From positions 1-33,399 of the forward strand of contig LT642209.1 of assembly GCA_900128585.1 (NCBI GenBank): a stretch of DNA of 33,399 bases, given 5' to 3'. Origin of the DNA: Stramenopiles sp. TOSAG23-3 (lineage: Eukaryota). Position 1 is the stretch's first letter; the number at the start of each line of letters is the position of its first letter. Both the position numbers and the translations under genes were made by a program. Shown here one piece after another: positions 3,878 to 28,329 of the stretch. Under the pieces are notes generated by a model, which was given only the letters and a program-made list of their open reading frames with translations, made no database searches and was not told the DNA's origin.

Positions 3878-3910
3878 ATGTACCAGATGGGATGTTGGGA
3901 TGTTGGGATG
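3878..3910 (-). repeat. Inverted copy of the CATCCCAA/CATCCCATCTGGTA repeat element
   Basis: 3878-3903 is the exact reverse complement of 17292-17317 (26 bp), followed by a further GTTGGGAT unit. Confidence 0.85.
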
Positions 3911-4043: not shown

Positions 4044-4715
4044 ATGAAGACCTGTACCAAATGCAACAAGAGCAAAGCGCTCACGGAGTTTTACAAGGAC
4101 TCTAGAAACAAGCGCGATGGACTGAAATTCCGATGCAAAGTGTGTGATAATGCCATTAAAAAGAAGTGGACCCAAAACAACCGGGAGAAACACAATACAT
4201 ACCTTAAGAAGTACTACCAAAACAACACGGAGAAATTCCGTGGATCAAGCAAGAAGTACCGCGAAAACAACCGAGAGAAATGCAATGCATTGAACAGGAA
4301 GAGGCAAAAACGCCCGGAAGTCCGGAAGAAAATTAATGCACGTAACAGGGAACGTAGAAAGACCGATTCACAGTTCAAGCTTAGAATGAATTTAAGCTCC
4401 CGCTTATGGCATGCACTCAAAGGCAAGGTCAAGAGTGCGAGTACCATGAAATTACTGGGCTGTTCGTACAAGCATGCAATGGAACATCTCGAAAAGCAGT
4501 TCCTTCCCGGAATGACATGGGATAACCATGGAAAATGGCACATCGATCATATGATGCCATGTAACTCCTTTGACCTGAGCGATCCCGAACAACAGAGACA
4601 ATGTTGTCATTACACCAATCTACAGCCCATGTGGGCATCGGAGAACATAAGCAAAGGAGATAGCATACTCTACAATCGTACATGGAATGGATGTAGATGG
4701 ATAAATACTATATAA
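4044..4715 (+). CDS. Free-standing HNH (homing-type) endonuclease with N-terminal CxxC..CxxC zinc finger
   Basis: ATG at 4044 in AAAATG context; CTKC...CKVC; HLEKQF..GMTWDNHGKWHIDHMMP...HYTNLQPMWASENISKG. Confidence 0.88.
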   Translation: MKTCTKCNKSKALTEFYKDSRNKRDGLKFRCKVCDNAIKKKWTQNNREKHNTYLKKYYQNNTEKFRGSSKKYRENNREKCNALNRKRQKRPEVRKKINARNRERRKTDSQFKLRMNLSSRLWHALKGKVKSASTMKLLGCSYKHAMEHLEKQFLPGMTWDNHGKWHIDHMMPCNSFDLSDPEQQRQCCHYTNLQPMWASENISKGDSILYNRTWNGCRWINTI

Positions 4716-5262: not shown

Positions 5263-5679
5263 ATGCCACTGTATGTATATTTGATTAGTCATAACAAGCC
5301 TGAAATTAAGACGCATACTTACATTGGATGCACCGAAAATTTTTTGAAACGTTTGAATCAGCACAACGGGTTGGAGAGTGGTGGACCACGGATTACGAAG
5401 CGAGCTGCTGGGTCTTGGAAACCTGTGATTATATTAAAAATAGAGAACAAAAAAATAAAACCCAAACAGGTGAAAAAAGAATGGAAACAGAGCTCAAGAG
5501 GGCTGGAAAGTCGTATTAGAAAGGGATTAGAATTGGCAATAAAAAACAAGCTAACAATTGTTTTACCTAAGAATAAAAATAGCCACATACCATCTGTTAA
5601 ATATTTAAATGAGAAATGGGACGGTGAAAAAATTGCCATGACAACCGAAGAATGGACCACACTACTTGAGAAGTTTTAG
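5263..5679 (+). CDS. GIY-YIG nuclease, SLX1-like
   Basis: YVYLI...TYIGCT..RLNQHNG..GG..T. Confidence 0.88.
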   Translation: MPLYVYLISHNKPEIKTHTYIGCTENFLKRLNQHNGLESGGPRITKRAAGSWKPVIILKIENKKIKPKQVKKEWKQSSRGLESRIRKGLELAIKNKLTIVLPKNKNSHIPSVKYLNEKWDGEKIAMTTEEWTTLLEKF

Positions 5680-17158: not shown

Positions 17159-17292
17159 AGTACATTTATTATAAATTTTGGTACAAATTATAAGGTATTT
17201 TTGTCTCAATGTAATATTGTTCTATAGTATTTTTATCATAATAGCTTAAACAAATTTGTAGATTTTATTTTGACGTTAAAATACTAGTCTGA

Positions 17293-17401
17293 CATCCCAA
17301 CATCCCATCTGGTACATCCCATTTGGTACATCCCATCTGGTACATCCCATTTGGTACATCCCATTTGGTACATCCCATTCGGTACATCCCATTCGGTACA
17401 T
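17293..17401 (+). repeat. Tandem array of 7 x 14 bp CATCCCATYYGGTA preceded by CATCCCAA
   Basis: Units start at 17301, 17315, 17329, 17343, 17357, 17371, 17385; adjacent to an AT-rich tract (17159-17290). Confidence 0.95.
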
Positions 17402-17491
17402 CGTACAGGTATAATTTTAATCTCGCTCCTTCCCGGGGGACTTCGGGCAATGAACCCGCGCAAAAAGAAACAAATTGAATTTAAATTAAGA

Positions 17492-22754: not shown

Positions 22755-23378
22755 TTATTTTGCACCGGATTTTAACGGTGGATGATCGTAATCCACGGAT
22801 CTACCTTCTGCAAACTGCATGTTGTCGTCTTTAAGCTTGTATTTGTGGCTAAGATTGTCCACGTAAGCTTTTAATTTCTCTTCTTTTTTGTTTTTTGGTT
22901 CCCATGTATTGAAACTGGTTACCAATTCGTGCGTCTCTTGAACGAATGGGATAGAGGGCGAAGCAGGTCGAAATGGCTCACCTTCCTCGTCTGGTACGAT
23001 GAAATCGCTCATATCCTCTTCCTCTTGATCCATAGGAACTTCATCAAACTCACCAGTAGGAAGTGACACTTCGTCTGGAACGCTGTCGTTCAACGAAAGA
23101 AATGTATTCTCCGTCAATGGACGAAACCCAAGTTGTCGGAAGCACTCGACTGCTTTTTCTTTGATCAATGGAATATGTTCCATAACACAATTCCGATGAC
23201 ATGTGTTCCACTCGTCGTCATACTTCCAAACCCAACGATTGTCTTTGCATCGATTGATATAAAATACTTCCAAGAGACCTTCTTCGTCTATACCAACCAT
23301 TTCTTCGTCTATACCAACCATTTCAGCGTACCAGACGCCAGATTCTCCGTTTATTTTTAGCAAATCGCCTTCCTTCAT
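22755..23378 (-). CDS. Hypothetical acidic protein
   Basis: Likely ATG 23378 (MKEGDL); acidic MSDFIVPDEE motif; contains an in-frame 21-bp duplication. Confidence 0.72.
   Translation of the reverse strand: MKEGDLLKINGESGVWYAEMVGIDEEMVGIDEEGLLEVFYINRCKDNRWVWKYDDEWNTCHRNCVMEHIPLIKEKAVECFRQLGFRPLTENTFLSLNDSVPDEVSLPTGEFDEVPMDQEEEDMSDFIVPDEEGEPFRPASPSIPFVQETHELVTSFNTWEPKNKKEEKLKAYVDNLSHKYKLKDDNMQFAEGRSVDYDHPPLKSGAK
23280..23324. repeat. Perfect 21-bp tandem duplication (EMVGIDE x2)
   Basis: TTCTTCGTCTATACCAACCAT at 23280 and 23301. Confidence 0.9.
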
Positions 23379-25514: not shown

Positions 25515-26462
25515 ATGGATCTTGAAGATTATGCAAAAGTTATTAGACGATCTATCGATCCTTATCGAAATGAATATGGGTGTAGAAACACGCTTCGAGT
25601 TTTTGTAAGTAGGTTGATGCGTAAAAAAACTTACCCCCCGTGGATGCAACCCTTGAATTTCCCGGCAAAGAAATGCTTCGCTGGACGGTACAAACAAGTA
25701 TATGTGTACGACAATTACGCAATAGCTATTAGCAGGGAAACAATGGATGTAGGTTCTTTGAAATCGAAATTTGAAAAAATCAACGAGAAGATACCTAATT
25801 CCTTAAACTACCCGGAAGAAACCTTCAAAATAGGTGGATACCACGTGGCAAAATTAAGGAAATGTTCGGATACTTTAGTAGATGTTCTTATTTCTGGTCG
25901 GCAGGGTTGGGAATCCCAGATGGTACAGTTGGGAGGTGCTTTGCGGAAACTTCACAATAATAATATAGTATTATCCGATATTAAAACGGACAATATTTTA
26001 GTTTGTGGTAATACACTATCGTTTGGTGATATTGACGACGCCTATGATCTAACAAAGAGCATAACGTACAACAGATTTACACCCCCTTACAATCTAAAAC
26101 TATACTGGGACGAGTACCGTACAGGACCAAGTTCAAATCCGTTGGAAGTTAAACATATGCAATTTCTGGACTGGTATGCGTTTGGTTACTGTGTGCTATT
26201 GTCATGTAAAACCGATGGTTATAGTGGGGTAATATTAAACAGCGCAATTGACTGCATAAATGCTAACATACCCTTTCGAATGCGTTTAGACGAGACAAAA
26301 TACAAAAAAGCAAACATACACCCTGTTGTACGCACATGTTGCGACTGGATGCTACTGTCAAGTGGACGATACATTAGTCCAACACCAATGGCAAAATTCT
26401 TTAAACAGAAGAAAAAGCGAGCTGTTACGGTATTCAGTTACAAATGGAACTTAAAATATTAA
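25515..26462 (+). CDS. Divergent Ser/Thr protein kinase-like protein
   Basis: FAGRYKQVY (Gly-loop-like), LH...IVLSDIKTDNIL, FGDID, DWYAFG. Confidence 0.8.
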   Translation: MDLEDYAKVIRRSIDPYRNEYGCRNTLRVFVSRLMRKKTYPPWMQPLNFPAKKCFAGRYKQVYVYDNYAIAISRETMDVGSLKSKFEKINEKIPNSLNYPEETFKIGGYHVAKLRKCSDTLVDVLISGRQGWESQMVQLGGALRKLHNNNIVLSDIKTDNILVCGNTLSFGDIDDAYDLTKSITYNRFTPPYNLKLYWDEYRTGPSSNPLEVKHMQFLDWYAFGYCVLLSCKTDGYSGVILNSAIDCINANIPFRMRLDETKYKKANIHPVVRTCCDWMLLSSGRYISPTPMAKFFKQKKKRAVTVFSYKWNLKY

Positions 26463-26499: not shown

Positions 26500-27131
26500 A
26501 TGCAAATATTGTAAGTTCGTTTTCCGTTCACTCTCTCCATACAGTACACGACTAACATTTTTACAGCGTCAAAACATTAACTGGGAGTAAGTATACATCA
26601 CAGAAGTCTAATAAACACACATTTCATACTAACAATATATTTAGAAACTATAACACTCGATGTCGAACCGACGGACACGGTAGAAAACATTAAAAACAAA
26701 ATCCAAGACAAAGAAGGTAAGTAAATTGTCATAATTCATACTTAATGAAATTTAGTCTAACAAATTTGATAGGTATTCCTCCTGACCAACAAGTAAGTTT
26801 TTGATACATATTTTCCATTATTAAATACACACTAACACCTATATAGCGTCTCATCTTTGCTGGAAAAGTAAGTAAAATCCGTTAAAATTATCTCGTATAC
26901 ACATTACTAACATGTTAAACAGCAACTGGAAGACGGGCGAACCTTGAGCGACTACAACAGTACGTATTTCCGCACAACAACCTATTATATTACTTTAAAT
27001 TACTAACACTTTAACAGTCCAAAAAGAGGCGACATTAGTAAGTACACATCGATGACTCAGATTACGAAATATTCATACTAACAAACCTACAGCATCTCGT
27101 ACTCAGACTTCGCGGCGGTGGTTTTATTTGA
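26500..27131 (+). CDS. ubi: Ubiquitin, 8 exons / 7 spliceosomal introns (not in track)
   Basis: join(26500-26510,26567-26586,26645-26716,26773-26792,26847-26867,26923-26959,27018-27037,27093-27131) gives [79 protein letters not shown]. Confidence 0.97.
26511..26566 (+). other. Ubiquitin intron 1 (56 nt, phase 2)
   Basis: GTAAGT...ACTAAC...CAG. Confidence 0.95.
26587..26644 (+). other. Ubiquitin intron 2 (58 nt, phase 1)
   Basis: GTAAGT...TACTAAC...TAG. Confidence 0.95.
26717..26772 (+). other. Ubiquitin intron 3 (56 nt, phase 1)
   Basis: GTAAGT...TCTAAC...TAG. Confidence 0.95.
26793..26846 (+). other. Ubiquitin intron 4 (54 nt, phase 0)
   Basis: GTAAGT...ACTAAC...TAG. Confidence 0.95.
26868..26922 (+). 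other. Ubiquitin intron 5 (55 nt, phase 0)
   Basis: GTAAGT...TACTAAC...CAG. Confidence 0.95.
26960..27017 (+). other. Ubiquitin intron 6 (58 nt, phase 1)
   Basis: GTACGT...TACTAAC...CAG. Confidence 0.95.
27038..27092 (+). other. Ubiquitin intron 7 (55 nt, phase 0)
   Basis: GTAAGT...TACTAAC...CAG. Confidence 0.95.
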
Positions 27132-27659
27132 TTTTCGAATATTATCTATTCTCCACATAGGTTGCAGATTCGAATAATGAAAACATTTTAATTGATCTTC
27201 TGGTTTCGCCATATCAAAACTGGAACATGGGATCACATGATCTATGTCCCATAAGCGTATATTATCCCATGACATACCATTAATAAATTTACTTTCTAAA
27301 TGTTTGCACAATTCTTCTATTGTACAACCTGTATATTTCAACGTAGATGTACATTTTTTCCCACCATAAGTTGTCACTGCTTCCCTTGTTCTATTTCTCA
27401 ATCTAGTTAAAATTCGAAATCTCGTATCAGTTTTGTAACGACGATTCATGTAGTTACGTTTATACTCTTTCCATTTCGGAGTTTTACGATACACCGTACT
27501 TCTTTTGTTCCACGCAATTTTATGGGTTGTATAATTTTTCTTATTTTGCTTTTTCATGCATGGCTTACACTGTGTTTGTTTTCCATCTGGTTTCCGTTTG
27601 TTATTATAAAACTCGCTATAATCCATACTTAAATTACACCCTCCGCACAATTTTTTCAT
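27087..27659 (-). CDS. HNH (homing-type) endonuclease, antisense to and overlapping ubiquitin exon 8
   Basis: CGGC...[52 protein letters not shown]; same family as 4044-4715; TAAATG start with TATA-rich upstream. Confidence 0.9.
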   Translation of the reverse strand: MKKLCGGCNLSMDYSEFYNNKRKPDGKQTQCKPCMKKQNKKNYTTHKIAWNKRSTVYRKTPKWKEYKRNYMNRRYKTDTRFRILTRLRNRTREAVTTYGGKKCTSTLKYTGCTIEELCKHLESKFINGMSWDNIRLWDIDHVIPCSSFDMAKPEDQLKCFHYSNLQPMWRIDNIRKSNKTTAAKSEYEML

Positions 27660-27738
27660 TTACAACATAAATTATTACCTTTATAGTATAAAAAATAAAG
27701 AGGCCACGTTGCACCTCGTACTCAGACTTCGCGGCGGT
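27096..27738 (+). repeat. 24-bp perfect direct repeat flanking the HNH gene
   Basis: CTCGTACTCAGACTTCGCGGCGGT at 27096-27119 and 27715-27738. Confidence 0.95.
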
Positions 27739-27747
27739 AAATATTAA
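27697..27747 (+). pseudogene. Intronless duplicate of the ubiquitin 3' end ([16 protein letters not shown])
   Basis: AAA GAG GCC ACG TTG CAC CTC GTA CTC AGA CTT CGC GGC GGT AAA TAT TAA; spans the intron-7 position with no intron. Confidence 0.9.
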
Positions 27748-27814: not shown

Positions 27815-28042
27815 ATGATTAAAATATACAAACCAAAGGGTAAAATAGAGTATACTGTACACGGAAAGTCTATGTTTTTCTTGCAAGATGGGATTTATTA
27901 CTTAAAGAAACCAATTGAGAAGCGTTTCTACAACGGTATGACGTGGGATAATTACGGAACCATTTGGAAAATTCGCACCCAGCGTAAAATTGGCGCGTTT
28001 TCGTTTGGACTAAACGGCAAACCTGAAATGTTGGGTATATAA
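27815..28042 (+). CDS. Small protein containing a fragment of the same HNH family
   Basis: IEKRFYNGMTWDNYGTIWKI aligns with LEKQFLPGMTWDNHGKWHI / LESKFINGMSWDNIRLWDI but lacks DH and the rest of the catalytic motif. Confidence 0.6.
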   Translation: MIKIYKPKGKIEYTVHGKSMFFLQDGIYYLKKPIEKRFYNGMTWDNYGTIWKIRTQRKIGAFSFGLNGKPEMLGI

Positions 28043-28063: not shown

Positions 28064-28329
28064 ATGTTTAAACTGCTCATTTTACTCTTATGCATCTTCT
28101 ACGCGCACGCGGGCTACGAATGTAGCTCTCCAACCGACTGTATTGTTACCTGTTCCAACTTTAAAGGCAAAGTTCCTAAACCGTGGATTGTTGTTCCATG
28201 GTCAAATGGGTCATGTAAGTAAATATTCTCTATTTCTTTTTTCGTTCGTTTTCTAACACAATTACAGGTTATTTCCATAATACCGATACACGAGAAGACC
28301 GGGACTCTCTCCCTAACCTACGTCATTAA
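28064..28329 (+). CDS. Spliced 70-aa protein: signal peptide plus WW-like domain (not in track)
   Basis: join(28064-28214,28268-28329); intron 28215-28267 GTAAGT...TTCTAAC...CAG (53 nt); MFKLLILLLCIFYAHAG...VPKPWIVVPWSNGSCYFHNTDTREDRDSLPNLRH*; GTATATAAG 29 nt upstream. Confidence 0.8.

Follow-up and report, generated by a model that had tools for sequence, protein, structure and literature searches.

The locus described here raises a simple question: why should one ubiquitin gene have two 3′ ends, with a nuclease gene lying antisense between them? We analyzed the whole 33,399-nt stretch of DNA (the window), which is an entire contig of a 28-Mb, 7088-contig assembly. The answer we favor, to which we assign a probability of about 65%, is that the antisense gene encodes a free-standing homing endonuclease that targets ubiquitin and cuts near codons 61–63, that the second 3′ end (copy 2) is a displaced gene end, and that intron 6 acts as a shield. 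This answer starts from the gene structure, its splicing, the intact nuclease motifs, the linkage to ubiquitin and the existence of empty syntenic alleles, all of which are observed directly. The features of the locus are collected in Table 1.

Table 1. Features of the ubiquitin–nuclease locus, in window coordinates.
Feature	Position	Strand	Remarks
Ubiquitin gene	26500..27131	+	8 exons, 7 spliceosomal introns; product ends LRGG-GFI
Exon 6	26923..26959	+	just 5′ of intron 6
Intron 6	26960..27017	+	in codon I61, after CDS nt 181; candidate shield of the cut site
Exon 7	27018..27037	+	20 nt; holds 3 of the 4 silent differences
Intron 7	27038..27092	+	between L67 and H68; absent in L152, L153 and L155
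Exon 8 (copy 1, the used 3′ end)	27093..27131	+	first 24-bp repeat at 27096–27119
HNH-type (beta-beta-alpha-metal) nuclease gene	27087..27659	-	190 aa; C-terminus overlaps exon 8 antisense
AT-rich region upstream of the nuclease	27660..27696	-	putative promoter; identity with L155 stops at 27688
Copy 2	27697..27747	+	intronless K63–G76 plus KY-stop; second 24-bp repeat at 27715–27738
Downstream gene	27815..28042	+	75 aa; conserved; synteny marker, also beside empty alleles

The window encodes polB, RPB2, PCNA, thymidine kinase, a histone and Erv1, and very probably derives from a mirusvirus of the marine plankton. Three IMG/VR records contain an RPB2 71–80% identical to that of the window, and heliorhodopsin is present in two of the three. 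The nucleocytovirus capsid model PF04451 matches neither the window (0/1) nor the related records (0/3), in a search where no positive control matched, and by annotation there is no mirusvirus HK97-type major capsid protein among the window's annotated ORFs. The virus looks like one of the Demutovirales, which the accessible portion of PMC12768974 describes as intron-poor mirusviruses that keep polB, RNA polymerase, PCNA and thymidine kinase and use the branch motif WCTAAC. The window likewise carries these four genes and few spliceosomal introns, with a branch motif that fits WCTAAC. The contig end (33321–33399) is, over at least 79 nt, a mismatch-free inverted copy of 23224–23302, likely due to amplification or to an assembly chimera.

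From its ATG at 26500, the ubiquitin gene is modeled with seven GT-AG introns of 54–58 nt, each with an ACTAAC or TCTAAC branch motif 15–16 nt upstream of its AG. RNA contigs of run X11 jump introns 5, 6 and 7 at GT..AG, and one 274-nt X11 record runs through exons 6, 7 and 8 and continues to 27309 with zero differences. Because the X11 contigs join exons 6-7-8, copy 1 is the 3′ end in use, and the transcript, reaching as far as 27309, overlaps the nuclease gene antisense. Read on the opposite strand, the last 6 nt of intron 7 are the final codon of the nuclease and its stop. Composition shifts along the coding sequence, with a GC3 of 0.82 across codons 50–60 (exon 6) versus 0.35 across codons 1–48; exon 6 is identical at 33/34 nt to a protist-type ubiquitin end from the same assembly (L002), and exon 8 from 27117 onward matches the nuclease-linked ubiquitin end of another virus, L155. 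The small gene downstream of the locus contains a GMTWDNYG stretch resembling that of the nuclease family and lies 3′ of ubiquitin in L155, L281 and L282 alike. Given a weak likeness (19/45, E 2e-6), we considered this ORF as a relic of an older nuclease and rejected the idea, as the ORF is also retained next to empty alleles. In run X11, one more GT-AG intron is spliced, at 28215–28270 in a small downstream gene (predicted at 28215–28267).

The two ubiquitin 3′ ends are real, just as the first-pass annotation had read them. Copy 1 (27023–27037 plus 27093–27119) and copy 2 (27697–27738, followed by KY-stop to 27747) are identical at 38/42 nt. The four differences are silent third-position changes (A65, T66, L67 and H68), three of these codons lying 5′ and one 3′ of intron 7; beyond them comes a perfect 24-nt repeat, with a spacing of 619 nt. 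Given the codon use of the virus, the probability that eight codons would be identical through independent synonymous choice is about 7e-6, so the likeness of the two ends is not due to chance, and the probability that 4/4 changes would be silent under unselected decay is about 0.005. Nor is copy 2 an artefact of assembly, because the same copy 2 and KY end, with no differences there, are held by contigs of two independent marine metagenomes from different studies (X3 and X4) and by contigs of X8, a second sample, possibly from the source study. It had also been proposed that both ends come from functional alleles, and this was right: the close relative L150 has its own copy 2, with six further differences, all silent.

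Copy 2 begins 5 nt beyond the site of intron 6. Its first 18 nt match the protist-type ubiquitins L156 (18/18) and L002 (17/18). When exon 6 and these 18 nt are taken together, the match to L002 amounts to 50/52 nt (background mean 35.9, sd 2.9, n = 83), and another protist-type ubiquitin copy scores 49/52 against the same patch. The 50/52 match suggests that repair on either side of the site used a host template, on the assumption that the L002-type contigs are of the host.

The antisense ORF is, by motif, an intact HNH-type nuclease that is predicted to cleave DNA. Its N-terminal CxxC pairs, D140-H141, N164 and N173 are intact; among 140 relatives, D140, H141 and N164 are invariant and N173 is at least 90% conserved. 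The protein matches PHROG 1035 (endonuclease VII) with an E value of 6e-17, and a search of the ORF against Pfam gave no match. A structure model (pLDDT 95) shows weak matches to Hpy99I, PacI, CAD and Cas9 HNH (Z 4–5) and, with Foldseek, no match at E 0.001. The wider family has 44,054 representatives, and this assembly contains 14 matches to it, 13 of them in addition to the ubiquitin-linked one. In a quick tree, the ubiquitin-linked copies form a clade of their own (four members, support 95) that excludes six other copies in the assembly; this mirusvirus clade is not resolved there as sister to the ubiquitin-linked clade of nucleocytoviruses.

A metagenome scan returned seven loci, of which three (L149, L151 and L154) are chance matches and four (L150, L152, L153 and L155) are true relatives. 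In all four, the nuclease is antisense and tail-to-tail with ubiquitin, and an intron follows CDS nt 181; the record of L152 begins at this intron, its upstream ubiquitin exons being out of view. Together with the window, these loci represent four distinct nuclease-bearing lineages. An intron in codon I61 is found in 4/4 of them, intron 7 in 1/4, and the tail-to-tail overlap is kept across 63–100% nuclease protein identity. L150 is 98.8% identical to the window over 10 kb and has the same copy 1. Its copy 2 shares just the first 27 nt and then has the six other silent changes and the tail FSI, so that the flanking repeat is 9 nt there; no such repeat is present in L152, L153 or L155. The 24-bp repeat is thus allele-specific. 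Between 26370 and 27723, L150 does not differ from the window at all, and because other stretches are nearly as invariant we do not claim a sweep. A patch of about 20 differences in a kinase-like gene (26053–26369) is common to L150, X3 and X4, while copy 2 of X3 and X4 is that of the window. This arrangement of the kinase-like patch and copy 2 is the one expected if alleles in the population recombine to either side of the locus.

More distant, though still syntenic, is L155. Its nuclease region is 96% identical to that of the window, versus 74–76% for pieces of thymidine kinase and exon 3, and its ubiquitin gene has a single intron, at the position of intron 6, and ends GG-FI. This intron matches intron 6 at 50/59 columns, as compared to 33–37 for the other introns of the window. 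The nuclease was evidently exchanged between divergent viruses in the recent past, the window and L155 being the one pair in which nuclease and intron are more alike than the flanking genes. Shortly behind the nuclease upstream region of L155 lies a 15-nt match to the KY end, a decayed duplication; the end duplication is full in the window and L150, and no second ubiquitin end is seen in L152 or L153. The nucleases of L152 and L153 are 74% and 63% identical to that of the window at the amino acid level. Their introns at site 181 resemble intron 6 in sequence no more than background does, and the other three introns of L153 (after nt 26, 100 and 133) occupy sites that differ from the window's. 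Judging from protein tails, 5/7 proteins in the cluster of the window have an L155-like end, and for this reason we regard the window's GGG-FI end as derived, joined one codon out of register.

Empty alleles exist as well. In L281 and L282, which are syntenic with the window, the flanking genes are shared, ubiquitin is intronless with one end, and there is no nuclease. Because these alleles are wholly intronless, they do not test intron 6 specifically (4/4 versus 0/2). A minor 177-nt DNA contig of X4 contains a diverged intron 7 and no intron 6. This contig joins the path of the nuclease-bearing contig, and X4 may therefore harbor an allele that lacks intron 6 yet bears the nuclease. A joint between 26959 and 27697, seen in X3, X4 and X11, was rejected as an empty viral allele; it is polyubiquitin of other organisms. 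In IMG/VR, a search for close relatives gave 0/8 candidates by single-protein scan and 0 by exact 24-mer, and a branch-plus-exon-7 pattern gave 64 matches, none with ubiquitin. The annotation had also proposed a search for relatives with a full ubiquitin ending LRGGKY and copy 2's codons. The IMG/VR pattern scan turned up no such gene; its only LRGGKY match (L148) is unrelated, an intronless ubiquitin whose codons differ and beside which the part read shows no nuclease. A prokaryote genome scan gave 3 matches.

A second group of viruses links the same nuclease family to ubiquitin. Among the best 80 IMG/VR relatives of the nuclease, five lie just downstream of ubiquitin, including the top three. 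In two nucleocytovirus-type loci, L068 and L069, ubiquitin is interrupted after CDS nt 182, a single nucleotide away from intron 6, by a group I-like intron of 329 nt. Searching for the core of this intron gave eight matches, all eight in ubiquitin and after CDS nt 182, and a member of the HNH family is near six of these (of the other two, one has none and one record ends early). By comparison, in a non-random set of intronless viral ubiquitins (the best 80 of 593), a family member is just downstream in 3/80, with one more, weak, upstream (Fisher p 1.7e-4, with 4/5 independent). Rfam reports no group I match for L068 and L069; the introns have U before the 5′ boundary and G as last base, a fold z of -3.2, and core-like motifs which we take to be P, Q, R and S. 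From boundaries, core-like motifs and folding, we call these introns and those of L267–L274 group I-like. Up to four such introns occur in L267–L274, at about five sites (after CDS nt 105, 114, 141, 182 and 206; L270, whose 5′ part is missing, was left out of this list). Two long introns of this set hold ORFs: that of L267 belongs to the HNH family, and that of L274 presumably has a LAGLIDADG-like start. In L069 (436–474), ubiquitin stops after G75 and so lacks one residue of the Gly-Gly end. A window intron lies within 5 nt of 4/5 group I-like sites (permutation p ~ 0.03).

The presumptive target can be followed as a DNA motif. AAY ATY CAR AAR GA is absent from the DNA of 13/13 nuclease-bearing ubiquitin loci, which were found regardless of introns, and present in both empty alleles; ATY CAR occurs in 56/66 background alleles, and 5/7 host-type ubiquitin genes in this assembly keep the motif. 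All six intronless, nuclease-adjacent ubiquitins of nucleocytovirus type deviate from ATY CAR (codons 61–62), versus 10/66 in the background. In these six alleles, codons 8, 28, 42, 43, 45, 65 and 72 differ from background as strongly, so the changes at codon 61 are confounded with lineage.

We propose the following scenario, in which the target site is predicted from positions alone. The nuclease would be aimed at intronless ubiquitin DNA around codons 61–63, and during co-infection it would cut the ubiquitin gene of another virus. Repair would then copy the donor's gene end plus nuclease into the cut virus. With no homology beyond the nuclease, the far broken end, starting from K63, would be joined behind the nuclease promoter, yielding copy 2, the displaced end of what was a functional allele. 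Lacking codons 61–62, copy 2 would therefore not be cut. Intron 6 would split codon 61 and so spare the donor from its own enzyme, which would cause intron 6 and the nuclease to spread together, much like intron and enzyme in the collaborative homing of phages. Because deubiquitinases trim whatever follows G76, any tail would be tolerated. Later recombination among alleles may have produced the mosaic seen in the window. Exon 8 and copy 2 would go back to two alleles of a single KY-ending lineage, of which only one had intron 7; this would account for both the 24 identical bases and the four silent differences flanking the intron. In that they coincide with intron 7 being present or absent, these four differences look like a conversion tract. 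The additional Gly in GGG-FI would stem from an out-of-register join to a nuclease-linked GG-FI end.

It is also conceivable, albeit unlikely in our estimation, that the nuclease is a ubiquitin-linked homing gene while intron 6 is ordinary and hitch-hikes by co-conversion, protection being afforded by codon changes, possibly the four near intron 7. Six nuclease-adjacent ubiquitins are indeed intronless, codon 65 is off background in 5/6 of these alleles, and in L268, L269 and L272 another group I-like site falls at codon 69, within 5 nt of intron 7. Yet the lone intron of L155 is at codon 61, codons 65–68 vary freely among nuclease-bearing mirusvirus alleles, both empty alleles have copy 1's GCG at A65, and copy 2 with its "unrecoded" codons stays uncut beside the nuclease. 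The first-pass annotation, too, had supposed that the recoded codons around intron 7 mark the recognition site, a notion at odds with the absence of intron 7 from 3/4 nuclease-bearing lineages, all four of which have the I61 intron, and with the start of copy 2 at K63. Codons 65–68 could lie within a long nuclease binding site. Another proposal, that a 619-bp element integrates and excises by a single crossover at the 24-bp repeat through a circle intermediate, strikes us as improbable. Its geometry fits, and X3 contigs break at 27090–27119 and 27715–27744 (one X3 record fits two places), the nodes of a nuclease-free junction of intron 7, exon 8 and KY at k = 31. We assume this k for the X3 assembly, consistent with 30-nt overlaps. 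A circle would instead give nodes at 27096–27125 and 27709–27738, which the breakpoints do not match. The 619 bp contain no recombinase gene, and the repeat shrinks or vanishes in the other lineages, as described above. The nuclease contig of X3 has a depth of 24.7, equal to that of its flanks (24.3 and 24.1), and any nuclease-free form is therefore a small minority. These comparisons speak against both the cleanly excisable cassette and the 619-bp circle envisaged earlier. The accompanying idea of a nuclease-free KY allele fares better: the X3 breakpoints hint at one, in the minority, with a library chimera as a possible source, while no deletion or excision junction is listed in the contigs of four runs. 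Such a KY junction could be either a never-invaded allele or an excision product, which the X3 contigs do not distinguish, and on this allele the annotation may possibly prove correct.

Could the nuclease be a passenger, with copy 2 a repair patch from host ubiquitin or a local duplication unrelated to homing? We consider this quite improbable. The match of exon 6 and of copy 2's first 18 nt to L002, and the 13 other family members elsewhere in the assembly, would suit it. Against it, the tail-to-tail overlap is conserved over the full range of nuclease divergence, the clade is separate from the virus's other HNH genes, and the last 24 nt of copy 2 match viral exon 8 rather than host ubiquitin copies; besides, a break at this site would itself cause host-templated repair. 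Highly improbable, finally, is a nuclease within a long, alternatively spliced intron (a shintron), with copy 2 as alternative last exon. Two AG dinucleotides in copy 2 (27700 and 27702) are in frame from the donor of intron 6 or 7, but no branch site lies within 40 nt before copy 2, and the products would lose or repeat three residues. Moreover, exons 6-7-8 are contiguous in RNA contigs, which extend to 27309, and the sole joint to 27697 has 5 extra letters and 7 mismatches and continues into another ubiquitin repeat. The locus is not a shintron, because the nuclease ORF lies beyond the spliced last exon, outside the intron. Overall, the evidence points to intron 6 over intron 7, and to homing over programmed excision.

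The cyanophage psbA system of Zeng, Bonocora and Shub (2009) is reportedly a case of collaborative homing. In phage collaborative homing, as presented in the accessible portions of PMC2988022 and PMC10055350, the nuclease gene likewise lies outside the intron, beside a conserved gene, with an ORF-less intron at the inferred target and empty alleles in existence. There the partner is an ORF-less group I intron, whereas here it is a 55–68-nt spliceosomal intron in a eukaryotic virus; here, too, the nuclease is antisense and overlaps the last codons of its target, the target is ubiquitin, and cleavage is predicted. The shintrons of mirusviruses, going by the same portion of PMC12768974, share with our locus a mirusvirus-type genome, GT-AG introns and an HNH nuclease proposed to spread the intron. 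They differ in that our nuclease is outside the intron, the virus is Demutovirales-like and the intron sits in ubiquitin rather than in a virion gene. PMC12768974, as far as its main text is accessible, names ubiquitin once, for RING ligases, and the accessible supplements list mirusvirus ubiquitins without introns in two rows. In fungal mitochondria, C-terminal duplications of cob and atp6 similarly leave a second gene 3′ end beyond endonuclease ORFs (PMC6279837, accessible portion); those cases involve LAGLIDADG or GIY-YIG enzymes, hundreds of bases and an organelle, as opposed to 51 nt, HNH, a virus and spliceosomal introns. Closest in target are the nucleocytovirus-type ubiquitins (L068–L070 and L267–L274), with the same nuclease family beside ubiquitin and an intron 1 nt from intron 6. 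Unlike our locus, these have a self-splicing-type intron of 327–331 nt, the nuclease on the same strand and no duplicated end seen. In the literature we found no ubiquitin-targeting homing nuclease and no collaborative homing with a spliceosomal intron, though the large supplementary tables of PMC12768974 may list the locus. To date, self-splicing introns are the only ones for which a partnership has been described where the intron shields a gene from a nuclease.

It is a question of long standing how spliceosomal introns are gained and how they spread. At this locus, the second gene end looks like the scar of the nuclease's arrival, and the virus may protect its own gene by an intron that is removed by splicing and sits where the cut probably falls. 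With a 58-nt intron, a soluble nuclease of 190 aa, and natural alleles with and without the intron, homing of an intron by a nuclease outside it becomes testable. The occurrence of the same nuclease family beside ubiquitin in both groups points to this gene as a homing battleground common to two virus phyla. More tentatively, and with the odds somewhat against it, a short spliceosomal intron may have been driven through a virus population by interrupting the target of a free-standing nuclease encoded beside it; at that very codon, another phylum uses a self-splicing intron against nucleases of this family. In that case the gene, 240 nt long, may carry its seven introns as armor against several ubiquitin-targeting nucleases. 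Host ubiquitin genes may be cut by the enzyme as well, and the host-like patch to either side of the site would then result from repair templated by the host.

Other nuclease-type genes and repeats are present in the virus and the assembly. The window has a second HNH family member at 4044–4715, with three 45-nt repeats, which falls in the virus's other clade and is not linked to ubiquitin; just before it, at 3878–3903, is a 26-nt inverted match to a 14-nt repeat array in the intergenic region 17286–17416. On another viral contig (L184–L186, G000:C6566), there are five matches to the family, three of them tandem or near-tandem. A free-standing GIY-YIG gene (PF01541) lies at 5263–5679 of the window.
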